Shown: positions 7,015-38,044, counted from the stretch's first letter. The stretch: 56,169 nt of DNA from Candidatus Kapaibacterium sp. (GCA_046590195.1 JBKJTP010000084.1:1-56169), one strand, 5' to 3'. Translations and numbers: made by a program. The notes: a model not told the origin generated them from the sequence alone.

Positions 7015-8793
7015 ATGTACGAACATTTGGAACTTCTGAATAGTAAGAAAACATCAACCGAAGAATTCATTGCACAGTACAAGGCTGCACACAAAGCCAA
7101 GCTGTCCAAGGAGCAGTTCTCCAAGCTTCTAGGCATCATGCCCGAGTCCATGCGTCGTCGTCGCTGGGCTGTCAGTAAGTCCAGCAGTGTTATGCTGCCG
7201 GAGTTGAAGTCCAGTGCCGATCAGGCTGAGCCGGACCACATTCCGCAGGATAAGCTTGAGAGCTACTACACCAATTTACAGGAACTAACCAAGAACGCCG
7301 CTGGCCGTTCCGAGATGAAGAACATCTCCGGCTTTAACCGTTATGTCATTACATCGGCGCAGAACAACACCCCGGTGCATGAGAAGTTCCTGTACACTCT
7401 GAACAACTACTGTGAGGTCAATGACGCTTGTCTGGTGGTCATTCCCTACCGCTACAAGAACCCGACCTCCGTCTTCACTCCGACGCAGGAATCCGAAGAA
7501 ATCTGGAATCCTCGCCTGACGCCATACATCATCGACGAGATGACTCGCCTGTCGAATAACTTGGTGCTTCTAGCCAATGTTAAAATCCAACCTACGGCCA
7601 TTCAGCCGCTATCCGGGTTCGACGGCTACACCGGTCTCGATTCCGCCATTCTAGGACACCCGAAGATTCAGCTTGTTACCGTCCCGACCCCAAGCCAGCA
7701 TCTTCCGAAGATTCTAGCCACCACGGGCTCCGTAACGCTGCCTAACTATACGGACAGCAAGGCCGGCTGGAAGGGTGAGTTCCATCATAGTCTCGCTGCA
7801 ATAGTCGTTGAAATCGACGCAGACGGTGACACGCACATCCGTCACATTCACGCTGACGATGTTACCGGGCACTTCTACGACCTCGACAAGTGCTACACCC
7901 CGACCGAAGTTACAGACGGCCACCGTGCCGCTGCACTGGTCACGGGCGACACCCATGCCGAGTTCATGGACGATAAGGTTAAGGCCGCGACGTATACGAA
8001 TGTAGACTCCATGTGCAGCCTACTACGTCCGGAGGTTATCGTCCGTCATGACGTGGAAGACTTCTACGCTCGTAACCATCATCACCGTGGCAATGACCTC
8101 ATTGCATTCGGCAAGCATCACTTCGGTCGTGACAATGTAGAAGAATCGCTACAGATTACAGCGAACTTCATTGACGAAACTACCTACCCGGAGAGCGTCA
8201 ACATCATCGTCAAGTCTAATCATGATGAGGCGTTGGACCGTTGGCTTCGTGAGGCCGAGCCAAAGTACGACCAAGAAAATGCCGTACTGTATTACTACAT
8301 GAAGTTCCATCAGATGCGTAATGTTCGCATGACGGAAACGGGATTTAGCAGCATCGACCCGTTCGAGTTCTGGTGTCATAATCCATTAGACCAGAAGGGT
8401 CTACGTAACAAGGCGCAGACCAAGTTCCTGAAGCGCGATGAGTCGTTCCGCGTCTCTGACGTGGAGTTAGGTTTCCATGGCGACATCGGTCCGAACGGAG
8501 CGCGGGGCAGCATCAAGTCCTTCGCCAAGATAGGTCCGAAGACCATCATCGGTCATAGCCATTCTCCGGGTATCCACGAGGGTTGCTATCAGGTCGGCGT
8601 CAGTGCCAAGCTCAACCTCGAATACGCTTCAGGTCCAAGCTCGTGGTCGCACACGCACTGCATTGTCTATCCGGATGGCTCGCGTACACTGGTCCACGTA
8701 ATCAATGGCAAGTGGCGCACCGCTGGCACGGTACCGCAGGATGACAAGGGTAAGGTCCGAGTAAAGTTCATCGACGCTATTGACGCAGAATAA
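7015..8793 (+). CDS. calcineurin-like metallophosphoesterase-domain protein with a ~300-aa unknown N-terminal region
   Basis: The ordered metallophosphoesterase motif set is visible: TGDTH (DxH), HDVEDF (GDxxD-like), KSNHDE (GNHD/E), GFHGD, GHSHSPG (GHxH). Confidence 0.55.
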   Translation: MYEHLELLNSKKTSTEEFIAQYKAAHKAKLSKEQFSKLLGIMPESMRRRRWAVSKSSSVMLPELKSSADQAEPDHIPQDKLESYYTNLQELTKNAAGRSEMKNISGFNRYVITSAQNNTPVHEKFLYTLNNYCEVNDACLVVIPYRYKNPTSVFTPTQESEEIWNPRLTPYIIDEMTRLSNNLVLLANVKIQPTAIQPLSGFDGYTGLDSAILGHPKIQLVTVPTPSQHLPKILATTGSVTLPNYTDSKAGWKGEFHHSLAAIVVEIDADGDTHIRHIHADDVTGHFYDLDKCYTPTEVTDGHRAAALVTGDTHAEFMDDKVKAATYTNVDSMCSLLRPEVIVRHDVEDFYARNHHHRGNDLIAFGKHHFGRDNVEESLQITANFIDETTYPESVNIIVKSNHDEALDRWLREAEPKYDQENAVLYYYMKFHQMRNVRMTETGFSSIDPFEFWCHNPLDQKGLRNKAQTKFLKRDESFRVSDVELGFHGDIGPNGARGSIKSFAKIGPKTIIGHSHSPGIHEGCYQVGVSAKLNLEYASGPSSWSHTHCIVYPDGSRTLVHVINGKWRTAGTVPQDDKGKVRVKFIDAIDAE

Positions 8794-9275
8794 TGACTAC
8801 GAAATTCACTGACACGCAGAAGGAAATGCTTGCCCATTTCAAGGCTTGCAAGGGTCGCGGAGTTTATAACCAGACCGACCGCCGTGCCGGTTGTACTACA
8901 TTTCTAGCTATTCAGGCAATCGCCGAGGTGCTTCGCACCGGTCAGGACGTAGCATTTGTAACAGACTTACCCAAGGAGTTTTTCACCGACATCATTGTTA
9001 AGTCCGCTGAGAAATGGTTCATGATGAAGGCAACAAGGTCGCCACATCAGTATGTGCAAATTGGAGACCGCCGCATAGACCTTCTGCATGTCGGATTTGA
9101 TATAGACCGTATCATGGGGAAGACTTACGGTGCAGCGTTTGCTGAGATTTGGACAAACGCTAATCATGATAGTCCTCTCAGATGGAAACGTTTACATGCG
9201 TTCGAGGCGATACAGAGTTCTCTCTATGGATTGAACTTTGAAGATAAGGTCTTCTATAGACTATTCGGTCACTAA
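8793..9275 (+). CDS. hypothetical protein, possibly a degenerate P-loop
   Basis: DRRAGCTTFLAIQAI loosely resembles the ARQTGKTE..AFLL Walker A region of TerL. Weak. Confidence 0.45.
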   Translation: MTTKFTDTQKEMLAHFKACKGRGVYNQTDRRAGCTTFLAIQAIAEVLRTGQDVAFVTDLPKEFFTDIIVKSAEKWFMMKATRSPHQYVQIGDRRIDLLHVGFDIDRIMGKTYGAAFAEIWTNANHDSPLRWKRLHAFEAIQSSLYGLNFEDKVFYRLFGH

Positions 9276-9296: not shown

Positions 9297-9330
9297 CATA
9301 AATAATGCCTTAGACAACTAGGGCATTATT
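9297..9330 (+). promoter_or_regulatory. CATAAATA box overlapping a 9-bp hairpin plus T-run, immediately upstream of the ATG at 9334
   Basis: CATAAATA at 9297-9304. AATAATGCC (9301-9309) pairs with GGCATTATT (9322-9330), followed by TTT and ATG. Confidence 0.5.
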
Positions 9331-9333
9331 TTT

Positions 9334-10101
9334 ATGGCTGATTATACTCAAGAGATTATTGAAGAGTGTCACGCTTGCGAGCGCAACCCGCTGTATTTCA
9401 TAGACAAATACGTTAAAATTCAAAGCAGTCGCGGTCAGATACCACTTACGCTATATCCAGCGCAGGCCAATTGCGTTGAGTCATTCGGCAGAGAGCCGCG
9501 AGTCGTCATCGCTACCCAACGCCAGCTTGGGATGACTTCTGTATTCACGGCCTATCTGCTGTGGTACTTGATATTCAATAAGGACAAGACTGCCGGTCTT
9601 GTCCTTCCTCGACTGCAAATGGTGCATGAATACATTCGCATATTCTATGAGATGTATGAATTATTGCCGGACTGGATGCGTCCGGGGATTGAAGAGCGTA
9701 CCAAGTCCTCTATTCGACTGAGCAACAACGCTCGTCTTATCACCTCTACGGCCGGGTCGAATACATTCAAAGGTAGGACTATTAACCTCTTGGTATGGGA
9801 CTTGGTTGGCTTTGGTCGGTATACCGATGAAGAATGCTTCCTCAACGAAATCTATCCTTGCATGTCCATCCCGGCTGGACAAATCATTATGTGTGGGAGT
9901 GGTCGCCCAGACGATACGCCAAACTTCTTAACGCAGGTTTACCTATCCGGACTGGTCGGTGGAACTTTCTATCCTATTCAATTGCGTTGGTGGGATAACC
10001 CATCGCTGACCCGCAAGTGGAAAGCAAAGCAGATAGAAGTTATCGGTGAAGAGCAATTCAAGTGGGAATACGAGTCTATTATCCTACCGTCTCGCCACTA
10101 A
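9334..10101 (+). CDS. terminase large-subunit ATPase-domain paralogue with degenerate Walker A and B motifs
   Basis: Collinear with TerL residues ~30-266. NPLYFIDKYV/DPAYFARNYV; LYPAQ/LYPYQ; ATQRQLGMTS vs SARQTGKTE (Lys lost); ELLPDWMRPGI/EELPNWLKPGI; LLVWDLVGF vs LLYCDEFAF (Glu lost); ends at WEYESI, aligned to QEYE|C, which is the intein insertion point. Confidence 0.6.
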   Translation: MADYTQEIIEECHACERNPLYFIDKYVKIQSSRGQIPLTLYPAQANCVESFGREPRVVIATQRQLGMTSVFTAYLLWYLIFNKDKTAGLVLPRLQMVHEYIRIFYEMYELLPDWMRPGIEERTKSSIRLSNNARLITSTAGSNTFKGRTINLLVWDLVGFGRYTDEECFLNEIYPCMSIPAGQIIMCGSGRPDDTPNFLTQVYLSGLVGGTFYPIQLRWWDNPSLTRKWKAKQIEVIGEEQFKWEYESIILPSRH

Positions 10102-10110
10102 GAGTGCCTC

Positions 10111-11112
10111 ATGGCTAAGAAAAACCCACGCCTAAAGAAATCCGGGACTGTAGAAGAATACACCCCGGAAATGATTGCTGAAATCCGCAAGTGCAAACTT
10201 GACCCGGCGTATTTCGCACGCAATTACGTCATGATTAAGCATGCCAAGCGAGGCAAGATTAAGTTCGCTCTCTATCCGTATCAGGAAGAGATGCTTCAGA
10301 TGTACAAGGACAATCGCTACAACATCATCTTGTCCGCTCGCCAGACCGGTAAGACCGAAACCACCTGTGCCTTCCTACTGTGGTTCGCTATCTTCCATTC
10401 CGACAAGACCATCCTTGTCGTATCCAACAAGTCCTCCAACGCCAAGGAAATGATTGGTAAGATTCAGTATGCCTACGAAGAGCTACCGAACTGGCTGAAG
10501 CCGGGTATCGACGCCGATAGCTGGAACAAGCACGAGTGCAAGTTCGAAAACAAGTCCCGCATCATCGCTCAGGGTACATCTACAGACTCTGGTCGTGGTC
10601 TATCCATCTCTCTACTATACTGCGACGAATTCGCATTCGTCCGGCCGCACATTCAGGCCGAGTTCTGGGACTCCATCTCTCCTACACTGGCGACCGGTGG
10701 TGCGTGTATCATTTCCTCTACGCCGAACGGTGACAGTAACCTGTTCGCTGAACTATGGCGTAAGGCAACGCTGGGCGGGCTGTCTGAAGATGATGCGCCG
10801 TTCAAGTCCAAGCACGTTCCATGGGATGCTCCGCCGGGCCGTGACGAGAAGTTCAAGCGTCAGCAGATTGCCATCCTTGGTGAGCGTAAGTGGCGTCAGG
10901 AGTACGAGTGTGTAACCGGTGACACTATCGTCACGGTTAGGAACAAGGAAACTGGTGAAATAGAGAATCTTGCTATCGCTGAACTTAAGATGCGAATTCT
11001 TATAAATAATCTCCATGAATCGGAGAATATAGTATGTCATGTGTCTACAAACTCACCAGAGCAGATGGTCTTGAATATATCGGGATTACGGTCAATCTGT
11101 CGAAAAGATTGA
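10111..11112 (+). CDS. terL: terminase large subunit, N-terminal ATPase fragment (N-extein, 266 aa) fused to a short N-intein and a read-through tail
   Basis: Walker A SARQTGKTE, Walker B LLYCDEFAF, coupling motif SSTPNG. At Cys267 (nt 10909) the sequence switches to the intein block A pattern CVTGDTIVTV. Confidence 0.85.
   Translation: MAKKNPRLKKSGTVEEYTPEMIAEIRKCKLDPAYFARNYVMIKHAKRGKIKFALYPYQEEMLQMYKDNRYNIILSARQTGKTETTCAFLLWFAIFHSDKTILVVSNKSSNAKEMIGKIQYAYEELPNWLKPGIDADSWNKHECKFENKSRIIAQGTSTDSGRGLSISLLYCDEFAFVRPHIQAEFWDSISPTLATGGACIISSTPNGDSNLFAELWRKATLGGLSEDDAPFKSKHVPWDAPPGRDEKFKRQQIAILGERKWRQEYECVTGDTIVTVRNKETGEIENLAIAELKMRILINNLHESENIVCHVSTNSPEQMVLNISGLRSICRKD
10909..10989 (+). other. 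N-intein fragment (~27 aa, block A only)
   Basis: CVTGDTIVTVRNKETGEIENLAIAELK. Block B (TxxH) is absent here and appears in the downstream ORF. Confidence 0.6.
11001..11008 (+). promoter_or_regulatory. exact T4 late-promoter consensus TATAAATA upstream of the GIY-YIG gene
   Basis: TATAAATA at 11001-11008, followed by the short hairpin TCTCC/GGAGA that contains the SD, then ATG at 11034. Confidence 0.5.
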
Positions 11113-11675
11113 GTGGGCATCGGCGATCAAGACGATTCGCCGATTACCAAATTACTAATGTTGAAATACTATTCACCGGGACGTATGACGAGTGTGATGC
11201 ACTAGAAGAAGGCTACATTACGCAATACGACACCTTTTACAAGGGGTTGAATATGACCAACCGTGGGAAGGGTCGTAATCTTTCGAGCAAGTTCAATACC
11301 TTCGGATACAAATTTAGTGAGAGTAGTCGCAAGAAAATGTCCGAGAAGTCAAAAGCTAGAACAGATCGAAAGACGGGACACAAACATAGTGATGAGGTCA
11401 AGAGACATTGGAGTGATATCAGGCGCGGGAAGGTCTGGGGTCCAATTAAGGTAGACGTTCAGACCCTACTATCTCAATGGGGTGAGTTCGCCCCATCGTT
11501 AGCTGATATGGAGTCCATGGTGGTCTACCGAGATGATAAGGTGTGGTTTAAGAATGGTAGGGAGTTTTCTTATCCAAAGGGTAAACTATCACTGTTCAAA
11601 AGGTTGAAAAGTGTGGAATACGGTGTAACTCCGGAAGCCATCAAAAGGATAATTGTAGATGAACAGCTTGTATGA
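11034..11675 (+). CDS. GIY-YIG homing endonuclease with NUMOD3-like repeats, lying between the two TerL/intein halves
   Basis: CVYKLTRADGLEYIGIT..LSKRLSGHR, E..YI, NMTNRGKG, then G[YH]K[FH]S[ED]..[KR]K.. repeats. A different frame from both TerL fragments; overlaps their ends by 79 and 17 nt. Confidence 0.85.
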   Translation: MSCVYKLTRADGLEYIGITVNLSKRLSGHRRSRRFADYQITNVEILFTGTYDECDALEEGYITQYDTFYKGLNMTNRGKGRNLSSKFNTFGYKFSESSRKKMSEKSKARTDRKTGHKHSDEVKRHWSDIRRGKVWGPIKVDVQTLLSQWGEFAPSLADMESMVVYRDDKVWFKNGREFSYPKGKLSLFKRLKSVEYGVTPEAIKRIIVDEQLV

Positions 11676-11970
11676 AATTCTGACCGAAAATGGTTTTAGA
11701 GACTTTATGACCGTCACTTCAAAGATGACGCCGGGCTACTGTGTCATCACTCTTACCGATGGTGTTGTGGTTAAGTGTACCCAGAGTCACCGATTCAAAG
11801 TAGGGGAGGAATTCGTCGAAGCCCGCGACCTCAAGCTTTCAGACAAGCTGGCACCGACCGGGGTTGGCGTATCGGCCATTGAATACGTTACGGATGAAGT
11901 TGAAGTTTTTGATGTAGTTAATGTAGATGATGGTAATCATTATATCACCAACGGTATAACATCACATAAT
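11659..11970 (+). other. C-intein fragment (104 aa, blocks B, F, G)
   Basis: See the TerL C fragment above. The terminal His-Asn occupies residues 103-104 and Cys is at +1. Confidence 0.7.
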
Positions 11971-12747
11971 TGTGACTTCCTGTCCTCTGACGGTGGCCTC
12001 ATGGATTCTTACGTCATGGGTAGCATCCAAAAGGAAGTCGAGATTATGACTCCTACATTCGTCATTGAGGATGAGGGCGAATTGTACAAATTCTACGCCA
12101 AGATTAATCCGCTATCTACCTACATCATCGGCATAGACCCGGCGACCGGTTCCGGTGTGGATTACAGTGTAATACAATGCTTTGAATTCCCGTCGATGAA
12201 TCAGGTCTTCGAGTATCGTAGTAACGTAATGCGACCGGAAAGTATCTACAAGGTCGTAAAAAAACTAATAGCCTTCATTTCCCAGACCGGTGCGGTGGTA
12301 TACTTCTCGGCTGAGAACAACGGTGTCGGCCAGTCCATTATTTCATTGTACCTGTCCGACGAAACGCCAGCCCCGGCAACCTTCGTATCCGAGGACGGTA
12401 AGGACAAGTACGGCTTCTTCACCAGTCCTCGAAGCAAGATTCGATGCTGTGTCAAGATGAAGAACATGATTGAGAACCGGACCATTAAGCTATCCTCCGA
12501 AACCATGGTCAAGGAGCTAAAGAGCTATGTCCGTAAGGCCGGCTCGTATTGCGCTCAGATTGGTGCTACCGACGACTGCATTGCGGCCTTCCTAATTGTT
12601 ATACGCATCATCGAAGAGATTGCGACGTATGACGAAAAGGCGTACCATATGATGTATCAGTTCGAAGAGCCGGGAGCATGGAAGGATGAGGGTCATCCGG
12701 AGCCGGATTACGGCTACACTATTCCAGTTGAAGCGATGCGCGGATAA
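11659..12747 (+). CDS. terL: terminase large subunit, C-terminal nuclease fragment (C-extein, 258 aa) preceded by a 104-aa C-intein
   Basis: Intein block B LTDGVVVKCTQSHRF, block F VEVFDVVNVDDGNHYITNG, block G ITSHN followed by the +1 Cys (TGT at 11971). The extein then continues CDFLSSDGG... with the RNaseH-like nuclease pattern IIGIDPATGSG. Confidence 0.85.
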   Translation: MNSLYEILTENGFRDFMTVTSKMTPGYCVITLTDGVVVKCTQSHRFKVGEEFVEARDLKLSDKLAPTGVGVSAIEYVTDEVEVFDVVNVDDGNHYITNGITSHNCDFLSSDGGLMDSYVMGSIQKEVEIMTPTFVIEDEGELYKFYAKINPLSTYIIGIDPATGSGVDYSVIQCFEFPSMNQVFEYRSNVMRPESIYKVVKKLIAFISQTGAVVYFSAENNGVGQSIISLYLSDETPAPATFVSEDGKDKYGFFTSPRSKIRCCVKMKNMIENRTIKLSSETMVKELKSYVRKAGSYCAQIGATDDCIAAFLIVIRIIEEIATYDEKAYHMMYQFEEPGAWKDEGHPEPDYGYTIPVEAMRG

Positions 12748-12755
12748 ATAGAAAC

Positions 12756-13298
12756 ATGACTAAGAAAATGCTATCCGTTGACATCGAAGACCTCCTAACC
12801 GAGTCCTCAACCGTTCATCAGTTGAAGTCCAATACCAAGGTTTTCTTTGGTCCCGAGCGTGAACGCAAAGCTGGACAGGTCCAGCTTACGAACGTCGAGT
12901 ACGTTCCGGCCGTTGCTAACGGAATGCTGATAGTAAAGTCCAAGACGCGTAGCTCTGACAAGACCTACGAGACAACCATCCAATTCTCCAAGGTTAAGTT
13001 CGTCAAGCCGGATACGCAGTATGCAGTGCCGGTTGCTACAGGTCAGGAAGAGATGCATATCATGCCGCTGAAGGCTCGTGAGAACGACGTACAGGTGCAT
13101 TGCACTTGCATGGACTTCTACTGGCGCTTCGCTATGCACAATGACCAGAACGATAGCCTCATCGGTAAGCCACCGGCACCCTACGTCAAGAAGACGGACC
13201 GCCCACCTCTGAATCCTGACCGGGTGCCGGGCGCTTGTAAGCACATAGACAAATTAACACAATATCTGTCCATGGAAAGGATATTGAAGCAGGCTTGA
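12756..13298 (+). CDS. SWIM-type zinc-finger protein (function unknown)
   Basis: HCTCMDFYWRF...(long spacer)...GACKHI fits CxC...CxH. GATAAATA at 12743-12750 precedes it. Confidence 0.4.
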   Translation: MTKKMLSVDIEDLLTESSTVHQLKSNTKVFFGPERERKAGQVQLTNVEYVPAVANGMLIVKSKTRSSDKTYETTIQFSKVKFVKPDTQYAVPVATGQEEMHIMPLKARENDVQVHCTCMDFYWRFAMHNDQNDSLIGKPPAPYVKKTDRPPLNPDRVPGACKHIDKLTQYLSMERILKQA

Positions 13299-13324
13299 CA
13301 TCTGTAATGTTACCCGCGTATTAT
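13295..13324 (+). promoter_or_regulatory. sigma70-type (early) promoter
   Basis: TTGACA (13295-13300, embedding the TGA stop of the previous gene), 18-nt spacer, TATTAT (13319-13324). Confidence 0.55.
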
Positions 13325-16394: not shown

Positions 16395-16864
16395 TGGCAG
16401 TTGTTGACCTAATCAAAGACGACCTATCCAACCTGCAAGAGGTGGTGAGGTATTATGACGCCGAGTTCAAGGCGCATGTAAAAGAACTCGCCTTGGATAT
16501 GAAGACGTATTCAAGAGCCAACTCAGAACAAGCCGGACTACTGGGCTTCTATGACCAGCTTCGCTGTGAATTGGAAGTCATGCTGGACGACATGAAGATG
16601 CGTTACGACGTAGCACGTTATCTGGCGCTGAGAGAGCTACAAAAAAACGAGTCGAAGACCCACCCGGAACGTACCTTGAACATGCTAATCGACGGCAACA
16701 AGGATGTTATCCTACACCACAAAGCCAAGAACGAAATAGACGAAAGGCTCAAGAAGGCCAAGTCCATCGTAGGCGCGTTCGTTCAGCGTGGACATTCGCT
16801 ACATAATCTCGTGAAAGCACGAACCGGCGAATTCCAGAACGAACCCATCTACGTGAATGAGTAA
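16394..16864 (+). CDS. possible UvsY-like recombination mediator
   Basis: Size (156 aa), helical character and the C-terminal FVQRGHSLHNLVKAR (T4 UvsY IKSRGFAIKHIQDMR as remembered). Located between the UvsX-like and UvsW-like genes. Confidence 0.4.
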   Translation: MAVVDLIKDDLSNLQEVVRYYDAEFKAHVKELALDMKTYSRANSEQAGLLGFYDQLRCELEVMLDDMKMRYDVARYLALRELQKNESKTHPERTLNMLIDGNKDVILHHKAKNEIDERLKKAKSIVGAFVQRGHSLHNLVKARTGEFQNEPIYVNE

Positions 16865-18347
16865 GAAAACAGCTACAATAAAAATACTCGATGAAACAAA
16901 CATCGTAGTTATAGGTCTGACCCAGTCCGAGTACAAGGTGCTGTCTGGCATATTCTCGGTGTTTGCCAAGGCGTACATGTTCCACCCGCTCTACAAGCTG
17001 AAGAAGTGGGACGGCCGGATACGTTTCTTCTCGCAGGCCGGCGCATCTTACATTACCTTGTTGCAGGATATCGTCCCGCACATCAAGAAGATGGGCTACG
17101 CCATTAAGTACATCGACCGCCGCCGCTATGTCGATGTCGAAATCCCGCAGATCGACAAGGACTATCTGTCCGACTACGGCTGGGAGCTTGGCGAGCATCA
17201 GGTTAACGCTATTAACGCTATTGCCGAACATGGTAATGGTATGCTCATCGCCGGTACCGGTGCGGGTAAGACCCTTATCACGGCGGTCCTATGCGACCTC
17301 TACGAGCGTATTTGTCGCCTTAAGATTGTCGTCATTGTCCCGAACATCGACCTTATCGACCAGACGGCGTTAGAACTTAGAGCCTTCGACCTCAATGTCG
17401 GTACCTATTCCGGCGCGGGAAAGTCTCTAGAAGAGAACATCATTGTTTCGACGTGGCAGTCTATCCAGAACAACCCTCGTATTATGTCCAACTTTCAAGC
17501 CGTCATTGTAGACGAATGCCACGGCACCACGGGTAAGGTACTTCAGGAAATCCTGAACGAGCATGGCGCTCACATTCCTGTCCGTATCGGTATGACTGGT
17601 ACCCTCCCGAAGGAACCCGCAGACCTCATGGCCGTGTCCGTAACATTGGGCAAGGTGCTTTACGAGGTCAAGGCCCATACGCTAATCGCTAAGGGTTGGC
17701 TGGCTAACCTCTTCATTAAGATGTACTGCCTGATGGAAGATTTCTCCGAACGATGGGCTGCCTTCCAGAAGAAACATCCGGAAGATGCCGCCGAAATGAC
17801 CGAGAAGGATTTCATCGAGCATCTGTTTCCAGATTATGAAGCCGAAACGACCTATCTACAGAAGCGCAAGCTCCGAACGGTATTCATGGCAGACTTCATT
17901 GAGAATATCCGTGGTCAAGCCAAGGGTAATACATTCGTTCTGGTGAAGTCGATTGCTGTCGGTAAGGCACTAGCCAAGCTCATCGAGGGTGCGTTGTTTA
18001 TCTACGGTCAGGACAAGACCGCAGTGCGTAAGCAAATCTACAAGATGTTCGAGGAACACGATAACCTCGTTGTCATCTCTACCTTCCAGCTTGCTTCCAC
18101 CGGACTGAACATCAAGCGCATCTTCAACCTCGTCTTCATCGACGCCGGTAAGTCCTTCACCAAGATTGTGCAGGCTATCGGTCGTGGTCTTCGTAAGGCC
18201 AAGGATAAAGATTTCGTCAACGTCTATGATTTCCACTCCAATCTAAAATTCTCGAAGCGGCATGCCGGACAGCGCAAGTCGTTCTACAAGGAACAGAAGT
18301 ACAATTATGTCGTTAAGAAGGTCGATTACGAGTCATACTACAAGTGA
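16857..18347 (+). CDS. uvsW: SF2 DNA helicase (UvsW-like)
   Basis: Motif I AGTGAGKT, motif II DECH, motif III TGT, motif VI QAIGRGLR. Confidence 0.75.
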   Translation: MSKKTATIKILDETNIVVIGLTQSEYKVLSGIFSVFAKAYMFHPLYKLKKWDGRIRFFSQAGASYITLLQDIVPHIKKMGYAIKYIDRRRYVDVEIPQIDKDYLSDYGWELGEHQVNAINAIAEHGNGMLIAGTGAGKTLITAVLCDLYERICRLKIVVIVPNIDLIDQTALELRAFDLNVGTYSGAGKSLEENIIVSTWQSIQNNPRIMSNFQAVIVDECHGTTGKVLQEILNEHGAHIPVRIGMTGTLPKEPADLMAVSVTLGKVLYEVKAHTLIAKGWLANLFIKMYCLMEDFSERWAAFQKKHPEDAAEMTEKDFIEHLFPDYEAETTYLQKRKLRTVFMADFIENIRGQAKGNTFVLVKSIAVGKALAKLIEGALFIYGQDKTAVRKQIYKMFEEHDNLVVISTFQLASTGLNIKRIFNLVFIDAGKSFTKIVQAIGRGLRKAKDKDFVNVYDFHSNLKFSKRHAGQRKSFYKEQKYNYVVKKVDYESYYK

Positions 18348-37126: not shown

Positions 37127-38044
37127 ATGCGAAATAAATGGACTACCGAACTAATGCTAATAGAGATTAGAAAGAGATTAGGCGATAGTATACGAGTTCC
37201 GAAAGACTTTAAGTATGAAGGAATTGATACTTTAGCAACATTTATATGTGAAGTACATGGGGAATTCCAAAAATCCTGTTATAGTTTACTTAAAAGCAAA
37301 ACTCCATGCCACTGGTGTGCCCCCAACCACAAAAGGACTTGGGCGGAGATTGAAGAGAAGATGGAGCTTATACACGGTAAAAAATACGATTATTCCTTAT
37401 GTCAGAAAACGTACATGCCTAAGTATAAGCTTAGCATTATATGCCCGGAACATGGAGTGTTCAAACAATCCGCTGCCGAGCATCTAACGGGCGCTGGTTG
37501 TAGAGTGTGTTACGAGGACAAGAATAGATTATCAATCAATACATTTCTAAAAAATAGTATTGAATTACATGGTGAAAATTACGATTATCAAAAAGTTTTT
37601 GAAACGTTTAGAAATGGTAGGTCGAAGGTAGAAATAATTTGTAAGAGACATGGAGTATTTACACAAAAGGCCACCGACCACTGTAGGGGTGTAGGATGTC
37701 CGTCTTGTCGTTCATCTAAAGGGGAACAACAAATTGAAAGATTTTTGAAAGCTACTCTTATTGATTTCATAAAACAGAAGACGTTCCCAGATTTAAGGTC
37801 ACTACGAGGGGGTTATCTAAAGTATGATTTCTTTATACCATCTCTTAATTGCTTAATAGAGTACGATGGTGTCCAGCATTTTAATGAAATAGGCCATTTT
37901 GACCACCAAAGAACAAAGGAATCTGATTTACTGAAAGATGAATATGCTAAGCTGAATAAAATCTTACTAATAAGAATACGTTATAACGAAGATGTGAACC
38001 AAAAATTAGAAGCTCTTATTTCATCATTGACAACTACACCGTAA
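37127..38044 (+). CDS. free-standing homing-endonuclease-like protein: three Zn-ribbon DNA-binding repeats plus a Vsr/PD-(D/E)xK (EDxHD-type) nuclease domain
   Basis: Repeats [IL]HGx[KN]YDY....C..HG.F.Q.....H..G.GC..C. C-terminus YDFFIPSLNCLIEYDGVQHF...HFD. Strongly AT-rich relative to the flanking natV and nadV. Confidence 0.65.
   Translation: MRNKWTTELMLIEIRKRLGDSIRVPKDFKYEGIDTLATFICEVHGEFQKSCYSLLKSKTPCHWCAPNHKRTWAEIEEKMELIHGKKYDYSLCQKTYMPKYKLSIICPEHGVFKQSAAEHLTGAGCRVCYEDKNRLSINTFLKNSIELHGENYDYQKVFETFRNGRSKVEIICKRHGVFTQKATDHCRGVGCPSCRSSKGEQQIERFLKATLIDFIKQKTFPDLRSLRGGYLKYDFFIPSLNCLIEYDGVQHFNEIGHFDHQRTKESDLLKDEYAKLNKILLIRIRYNEDVNQKLEALISSLTTTP

Follow-up and report, generated by a model that had tools for sequence, protein, structure and literature searches.

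A terminase large subunit gene apparently fractured by an atypically split intein and a GIY-YIG endonuclease gene in an uncultured relative of XacN1-type jumbo phages

Analysis of a 56,169-nucleotide (nt) stretch of DNA recorded as Candidatus Kapaibacterium sp. (GCA_046590195.1 JBKJTP010000084.1:1-56169; the whole stretch is called the window below) revealed that the gene of the phage terminase large subunit (TerL) at 10111-12747 is broken into two open reading frames (ORFs), one ending in a short N-terminal intein piece (IntN) and the other beginning with the corresponding C-terminal piece (IntC), and that a GIY-YIG endonuclease gene lies between them. With a probability of roughly 85%, the two pieces form an atypically split intein that is functional and joins the halves by trans-splicing into a TerL of 524 amino acids (aa). 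This reading is based on the anatomy of the locus, its homology to a validated intein family, the conservation of the catalytic residues, purifying selection, and the exact restoration of an uninterrupted TerL ORF once the insert is taken out.

According to the ORF list and the sequence, the three genes are co-oriented on the + strand and overlap one another. ORF1 (10111-11112, 333 aa) encodes the TerL ATPase domain, a 266-aa N-extein (10111..10908) with the Walker A motif ARQTGKTE and the Walker B motif LLYCDEF that ends in ...RKWRQEYE, and then passes at Cys267 into IntN (10909..11010; CVTGDTIVTVRNKETGEIENLAIAELKMRILINN), which comprises Cys1, block A, strands beta1-beta2 and helix alpha1. 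ORF2 (11034-11675, 213 aa) encodes a free-standing GIY-YIG homing endonuclease with a NUMOD3 DNA-binding motif. ORF3 (11659-12747, 362 aa) opens with IntC (11659..11970), which carries block B (T41xxH44), block F (D85) and block G (H103-N104), and continues from Cys+1 (CDFLSS...) into the C-extein (11971..12747, 258 aa and the stop codon) with its RNaseH-like nuclease domain. A script check placed Cys267 at nt 10909, where CVTGDTIVTV starts, and gave IntC a length of exactly 104 aa, with His103-Asn104 as its last residues and Cys105 (CDFLSS) next, all as proposed in an initial annotation made from the sequence alone. That annotation had assigned the two TerL ORFs to different frames, which proved wrong: ORF1 and ORF3 share one frame, because 11659-10111 = 1548 = 3x516, with 10 in-frame stop codons between them, and only the endonuclease gene lies in another frame. 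The endonuclease gene shares 79 nt with ORF1 and 17 nt with ORF3; the latter overlap is kept in two relatives, L001 (a 48.8-kb contig from an independent JGI metagenome) and L007.

Both intein pieces were found to be related to 6DSL, the crystal structure of the consensus atypical split TerL intein Cat (chain A, CatN; chain B, CatC). Residues 6-106 of ORF3 had 6DSL_B ("Consensus engineered intein CatC") as their top solved-structure match (E=4.1e-12), and a profile of 10 IntN segments from relatives matched 6DSL_A with E=1.7e-7, covering chain residues 6-32 of 33. The 10-sequence profile was needed for the CatN match because the single ORF1 C-terminus found nothing meaningful, a phmmer search of its raw 77 aa against the PDB returning spurious uL24m matches only. 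Judged by these comparisons, the intein match lies far beyond chance for both IntC and the IntN profile. IntN also aligns with the contiguous inteins of three relatives (P0003, P0025 and P0034). In the AlphaFold model of ORF3 (mean predicted local distance difference test score of 81.6), confidence collapses exactly at residues 105-111, and the first 104 residues superpose on 6DSL_B with a template modelling score of 0.78, a root-mean-square deviation of 2.0 A and E=2.2e-8 (Foldseek), identity to CatC being only 32% over the fold alignment. Among 29 aligned IntC-nuclease ORFs, H44, D85, H103, N104 and C105 (Cys+1) are invariant and T41 is at least 90% conserved, and Cys1 is invariant in all 10 IntN pieces; the predicted 104-aa IntC with blocks B, F and G and a following +1 Cys is thereby borne out. 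The NCBIfam model TIGR01443 (intein_Cterm) also recognized ORF3, with 17 bits against a cut-off of 15.6. No further intein pieces of the IntC/IntN family were detected elsewhere in the window.

IntN holds only block A and IntC holds blocks B, F and G, so the intein is split at the S2 site after helix alpha1, in agreement with the earlier proposal of a break between blocks A and B. The CatC chain continues with Cys-Glu after its terminal residue, and the homologs of the window element read SHN|CEFL or SHN|CDFL, which would be consistent with a shared insertion point in TerL. From Cys1 inclusive, ORF1 encodes 67 residues, because its frame continues through the start of the endonuclease cassette. 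The part equivalent to CatN ends at about residue 30, and homology to CatN and to the contiguous homologs gives 30-34 intein-homologous residues; the short IntN of the initial annotation therefore stands, and its figure of about 27 residues has to be raised. The last 33-37 residues of ORF1 (the segment 11011..11112 on the + strand holds 33 aa and the stop codon) are non-homologous read-through into the cassette with no counterpart in the contiguous homologs; they cover the promoter box, the Shine-Dalgarno sequence and the first 79 nt of the endonuclease gene, and this tail probably has no function of its own.

When nt 10909-11970 (1062 nt) are taken out, a 1575-nt ORF with the junction QEYE|CDFLSS results, which aligns without gaps to the 1575-nt intein-less TerL gene of the relative L002. 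Among the relatives retrieved by searching 5.8 billion proteins is the TerL of L002 (P0005, 524 aa), which lacks the intein. It reads ...RKWRQEYECDFLSSDGG... at the junction (QEYECDFLSS) and shares 96% aa identity with the N-extein of the window; the predicted ligation product of 266 + 258 = 524 aa with the junction QEYE|CDFLSS, which the initial annotation had put forward, is thus equal to it in length and junction. L086 is a second intein-less relative, and the empty-site DNA of both reads GGTGAGCGTAAGTGGCGTCAGGAATATGAGTGTGACTTCCTGTCC... At the DNA level, identity between the window and L002 peaks at 97% in a 60-nt segment across the junction and falls to 63-67% some 50-130 nt downstream of it, a profile suggestive of a co-conversion tract that, as one comparison only, is not interpretable. 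The insert has a GC content of 40-47% and a positive GC skew, as against 47-57% in the TerL exteins and a negative skew in the N-extein; this composition of the intein and endonuclease is consistent with a foreign origin.

The flanking halves are clearly recognizable as terminase. ORF1 matched Pfam Terminase_6N (5.7e-15) and phrog_5989 (1.8e-60), and ORF3 matched Pfam Terminase_6C (6e-7) in profile searches. The C-extein matched the RB49 gp17 nuclease (3C6A) at 1.7e-8 in the sequence search of solved structures, and its model matched T4 gp17 (3CPE) at 1.3e-11 in Foldseek; beyond the first 104 residues, the ORF3 model resembles the nuclease domains of T4 gp17, RB49 and G20c. Residues D160, E219 and D306 of the nuclease domain are invariant in the 29-homolog alignment.

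L001 has the same three genes at the same TerL site. Its protein identity to the window (tblastn) is 85% for the N-extein, 65% for IntN, 62% for the endonuclease over its full length, 57% for IntC and 66% for the C-extein. Nei-Gojobori estimates between the two gave dN/dS of 0.05 for the N-extein and 0.23 for IntN, and pN/pS of 0.33 for IntC, 0.34 for the endonuclease and 0.27 for the C-extein, the ORF1 tail being the most relaxed module (dN/dS 0.56). On this comparison, all three genes appear to be under purifying selection. The nearest cultured relatives are jumbo phages of 310-385 kb, namely Xanthomonas XacN1 (57%) and Xoo-sp13 and Stenotrophomonas CM1/RAS14, and a conserved synteny block comprises a DnaB-like helicase, a protein of about 560 aa, a paralog of the TerL N-terminal domain, TerL, a 180-aa protein, gp32, RecA/UvsX and UvsW. 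A megablast search of 9300-13300 against the phage collection gave no match, and a scan of viral contigs with the single ORF3 protein found no relative, whereas an alignment-based scan did recover relatives.

Taken together, the relatives seem to represent every stage of a homing cycle. Empty sites occur in L002 and L086, and an intact GIY-YIG cassette in the window and L001; in L007, a 62-aa ORF is left as an endonuclease remnant, in which the GIY-YIG domain is reduced to its first ~35 residues and the C-terminus overlapping the start of IntC is retained. Contiguous mini-inteins are found at the same site in P0003, P0025 and P0034 (e.g., QEYE|CVGGDTLVTVKNVHTGKIEKIAISELDMRLSINAN-SYQILTESGFKDF), so that the site where the cassette was inserted can be placed between residue ~34 of IntN and residue ~2 of IntC. 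The same gap is occupied by HNH_3 genes (about 1e-12) in L008 and L073 and by large DUF7487, MTES_1575 or Vsr-like genes in L009 and L010, so that the split point houses at least three endonuclease families. Across these loci, the IntN piece including its tail measures 28-67 aa, that of the window being the longest.

Several other inteins were noticed in the TerL genes of relatives (L003 4626-7809, L061 2909-3913, L008 1451-3427, L009 1304-2509 and L010 672-2357). At the Walker-B site (...LLY|C...), a further atypically split intein accompanied by an HNH-like gene was seen, its IntC reading ...SHQ|CDEFAF, and in other cases large insertions immediately follow the Walker-A GK; in some relatives, two or three inteins thus share a single TerL gene. 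In addition, the UvsW-like helicase of L001 (11224-13089) is split into a ResIII/DEAD part with a weak intein match, a 160-aa ORF and a Helicase_C part and looks like a second fractured gene, whereas the UvsW homolog of the window (16857-18347, 496 aa) is intact.

The product of ORF2 matched PF01541 (GIY-YIG) over residues 2-67 (25.7 bits, cut-off 22.6; 1.5e-5), PF07460 (NUMOD3) over residues 115-133 (23 bits, cut-off 20.4; 7.6e-5) and the homing endonuclease family phrog_314 (8.5e-16), which upholds the GIY-YIG gene of the initial annotation. The group I intron endonuclease model TIGR01453 gave 4.9e-8, below its cut-off; no significant solved-structure match was obtained for ORF2 by sequence, and no paralogs of the endonuclease were found elsewhere in the window.

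The box TATAAATA lies at 11001-11008 (+), inside IntN codons and 25 nt upstream of the endonuclease ATG. It has six copies in the window (at 2130, 11001, 19949, 23204, 37084 and 48990), all on the + strand, where 1.6 are expected. Five of the six stand 25-40 nt before an ORF start (2166, 11034, 19984, 23238 and 37127), which points to possible late promoters of the T4 type in this relative of XacN1-type jumbo phages. L001 retains the copy next to the endonuclease gene, whereas L007, which has only the endonuclease remnant, has lost it. A GGAGA Shine-Dalgarno sequence, read from the DNA at 11022-11026 (+), stands 7 nt before the endonuclease ATG, and a Shine-Dalgarno-like AAGGA (11645..11649, +) stands 9 nt before the ATG of ORF3, within the 3' end of the endonuclease gene; the ATG region of ORF3 is conserved in L001 and L007. 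No terminator-like site was found on the + strand between the three ORFs. A hairpin upstream of the endonuclease gene that would cover the Shine-Dalgarno sequence (TCTCC...GGAGA) received no support, with a fold z-score of -0.74 and a stem that is not conserved in L001, and was set aside. Behind another of the TATAAATA boxes, a 305-aa ORF (37127-38044, +) with a cysteine/histidine-rich N-terminus has a weak DUF5889 match (E=6.7e-4, below cut-off) and might be a further mobile nuclease-like gene.

Under the preferred reading, the TerL gene of this uncultured XacN1-related phage would be fractured by a class-1 intein split at S2, with the GIY-YIG gene sitting in the split. Three polypeptides are predicted: the ATPase domain followed by an IntN of about 30-34 aa and a tail of 33-37 aa, the GIY-YIG endonuclease, and the 104-aa IntC followed by the nuclease domain. 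IntN would dock onto IntC and complete the Hedgehog/intein (HINT) fold, after which an N-S acyl shift at Cys1 would lead to transfer of the N-extein to Cys+1; cyclization of Asn104 would then let the intein pieces leave and produce the 524-aa TerL with the junction ...RQEYE-CDFLSS... The endonuclease may cut intein-less TerL alleles of co-infecting relatives, with the empty sites of L002 and L086 as candidate targets, and, during repair, the cut alleles would acquire the entire cassette of intein and endonuclease, which constitutes homing.

Comparable systems have been reported before. According to reviews, the split TerL inteins AceL-TerL (25/104 aa, Cys1/Cys+1), GOS-TerL (37/115 aa, Ser1/Cys+1) and Cat (30/104 aa) trans-splice and are split at the S2 site after helix alpha1, and natural IntN pieces measure 15-37 aa. 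The window element resembles all three in the homology of both pieces to CatN and CatC, in the S2 split and in its TerL host, and resembles AceL-TerL and Cat in its 104-aa IntC with Cys1/Cys+1; as in Cat, its C-extein begins with Cys and an acidic residue (CD in the window, CE in the CatC chain). The AceL-TerL/GOS-TerL geometry proposed in the initial annotation is thus supported, a likeness that rests on the consensus Cat (6DSL) and the lengths given in reviews. The differences are the length of ORF1 from Cys1, 67 residues versus 25-37 in the characterized systems, and the host, a relative of the XacN1-type jumbo phages.

The arrangement as a whole corresponds to the fractured genes of Dassa et al. 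(2009, PMC2677866), as had also been proposed at the outset, in which a free-standing GIY-YIG or Vsr-like endonuclease gene separates the halves of a split intein. The same study reported T4-late-promoter boxes, a hairpin in the 5' untranslated region of the endonuclease gene and overlaps of 6-69 bp between the endonuclease gene and the downstream part, and it described a gp17-like terminase locus from Lake Gatun that is broken 'at an unusual point', its C-part holding every N-motif other than N1. In the window, the halves likewise lie on one strand and in the original order with the endonuclease gene between them, the endonuclease (GIY-YIG with NUMOD) belongs to one of their two types, a box similar in sequence to T4 late promoters precedes its gene, and the 17-nt overlap is within the reported range. 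The terminase C-part of that study has 122 residues rather than 104, and the hairpin in the 5' untranslated region is unsupported in the window. The window element is a clear further example of an arrangement described since 2009 and not a new kind of system.

Among isolated phages, the gp17 genes of Yersinia phages TG1 (L087, NC_028820 90964-93813) and phiR1-RT and of Escherichia phage kaaroe (L088, MN850574) show the same order of the TerL N-terminal part with a short IntN, an endonuclease, and an IntC homologous to that of the window (37-42% identity) with the TerL C-terminal part. They differ in their insertion site, which is the Walker-B motif (...IYIDE|C...) and not the boundary of the ATPase and nuclease domains, and in their endonuclease, which is unrelated to GIY-YIG; in kaaroe, moreover, the N-extein, IntN and endonuclease are fused in frame into one 583-aa ORF. 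As these T4-like phages are viable, long appendages on IntN appear to be tolerated. The records of TG1 and kaaroe annotate the parts merely as 'terminase large subunit', 'endonuclease' or 'hypothetical protein'. Free-standing homing endonuclease genes also break essential phage genes into two co-oriented ORFs in the Aeh1 nrdA gene (HNH) and in gp43 of Aeromonas phage 25 (GIY-YIG), both intein-less split genes (PMC2677866); their halves reassemble non-covalently, whereas those of the window carry intein pieces with intact splicing residues.

The intein type is widespread. An exhaustive HMMER search of a representative library (clusters at 50% identity) with IntC returned 820 clusters at E<=1e-3 and 124 at E<=1e-10, and 86 of the 150 best are of the split type, their alignment with IntC beginning no later than residue 15 of the protein. 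Eighty records of isolated phages have this IntC type under TerL annotations, more than half of them (42) from Campylobacter phages. In the three that were inspected (Yersinia TG1, coliphage kaaroe and a Campylobacter phage), the intein occupies the Walker-B site and not the ATPase/nuclease junction.

Other explanations of the broken gene have to be weighed. That a chimeric contig or an indel falsely breaks a contiguous TerL is conceivable for a metagenomic contig carried by one record only; the insert, however, is no indel, since its 1062 nt code coherently for IntN, the endonuclease and IntC, and the same architecture is present in the independent sample L001 and in P0002, P0004, P0006 and P0007. 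The same genes under purifying selection in L001 practically rule out an assembly artefact, which is extremely improbable on this evidence, and they also argue against a decaying gene. Joining at the RNA or translation level, by a self-splicing intron with an endonuclease gene or by ribosomal bypass or read-through, is very unlikely as well. It would accord with the resemblance of the endonuclease to group I intron endonucleases, with the shared frame of ORF1 and ORF3, with a cassette (IntN residue 34 to IntC residue 2) whose 651 nt are a multiple of three, and with the existence of contiguous homologs. However, Rfam searches of 10700-12000 were negative for group I and group II introns at E<=10, no family reached the gathering threshold anywhere in the window, and there is no room for an intron core because the 642-nt endonuclease ORF takes up nearly all of the 651-nt insert. 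Read-through is excluded by the 10 stop codons between ORF1 and ORF3, ORF3 has an ATG and Shine-Dalgarno sequence of its own, and the same gap is filled by unrelated HNH or Vsr-like genes at other loci.

The explanation that the fracture is not covalently repaired, either since the halves form a non-covalent complex via the intein pieces or since this TerL is decaying and another terminase, encoded outside the window, does the packaging, is improbable. The window represents only 56 kb of a genome that probably exceeds 300 kb, as judged from the size of the nearest relatives, intein-less split enzymes such as NrdA of Aeh1 can function (PMC2677866), and the tail on the IntN piece of ORF1 is unusually long. 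On the other hand, association alone would not need the splicing residues, all of which are kept (Cys1, TxxH, Asp, His-Asn and Cys+1), every module is under apparent purifying selection between the window and L001, and the conserved synteny block of the relatives has a single TerL at this position. The sole other TerL-like ORF of the window (9334-10101) has no nuclease domain, and its Walker A lysine and Walker B glutamate are missing. Several points nevertheless count against a functional split intein. The 67-aa IntN piece exceeds every characterized natural IntN, and its additional residues might impede splicing or make it slower; the genome may encode a second intact TerL outside the window; and the selection ratios are rough because synonymous sites are saturated. 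The comparison with intein profiles that had been suggested as a check was favorable for the two 6DSL chains and TIGR01443 and unfavorable for Pfam Intein_splicing, which remained below threshold on ORF3 (E=0.014), as did PT-HINT (0.065); Pfam alone would therefore miss the intein. The doubt that remains about a trans-splicing intein arises because we infer the splicing of this particular pair, the IntN tail is unusually long and the genome is incomplete.

The gene directly upstream of TerL is a 255-aa paralog of its ATPase domain (9334-10101, +; 30% identity, BLASTP 2e-39; phrog_5989 1.2e-41), whose end (...KWEYES and 7 aa) falls exactly where the intein is inserted in TerL, at the boundary of the ATPase and nuclease domains. 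In the window copy, GMT and WDL stand where the Walker A lysine and Walker B glutamate are missing, whereas the copy of L021 (~1392-2130) keeps both residues. Other copies were found in L002 (5224-5991), L001 (3277-4065), L010 (1-660) and L086 (5125-5979). The paralog evolves rapidly, with 54% identity between the window and L002 (96% for the TerL N-domains) and 26-31% to the other copies; it occurs with or without the intein and is absent from XacN1 and L007. ORF256 of XacN1, which lies upstream of the XacN1 TerL, was rejected as a counterpart, as it is not homologous. Between a 592-aa gene and the paralog, there is a 160-aa ORF (8793-9275, +) that has no counterpart at this place in L002 or L086 and no Pfam, PHROG or NCBIfam match; its P-loop-like motif DRRAGCTT aligns to the TerL Walker A, but the likeness to TerL is not significant (hhalign probability 2.6%).

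It is also conceivable, though unlikely, that the fracture is more than the footprint of a parasite and that trans-splicing times the active packaging motor. The nuclease half would be strictly late, because the late-promoter-like box lies in IntN codons and the endonuclease gene would be translationally coupled to ORF3, and the 67-aa IntN piece would then tune the splicing rate. The paralog at 9334-10101 might be an exapted copy of the liberated N-extein that now acts as a partner or regulator of the motor.

In current annotations, such loci appear merely as a pair of 'terminase large subunit' genes or as hypothetical proteins. The window element adds one more natural atypical split intein (Cys1/Cys+1, 104-aa IntC and short IntN) to a type that is valued for semisynthetic protein labelling, and its close relatives are good material for understanding how free-standing endonucleases create, maintain and abandon split inteins. 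If the intein is active, genome packaging, an essential step for this phage, would depend on the post-translational ligation of two proteins.

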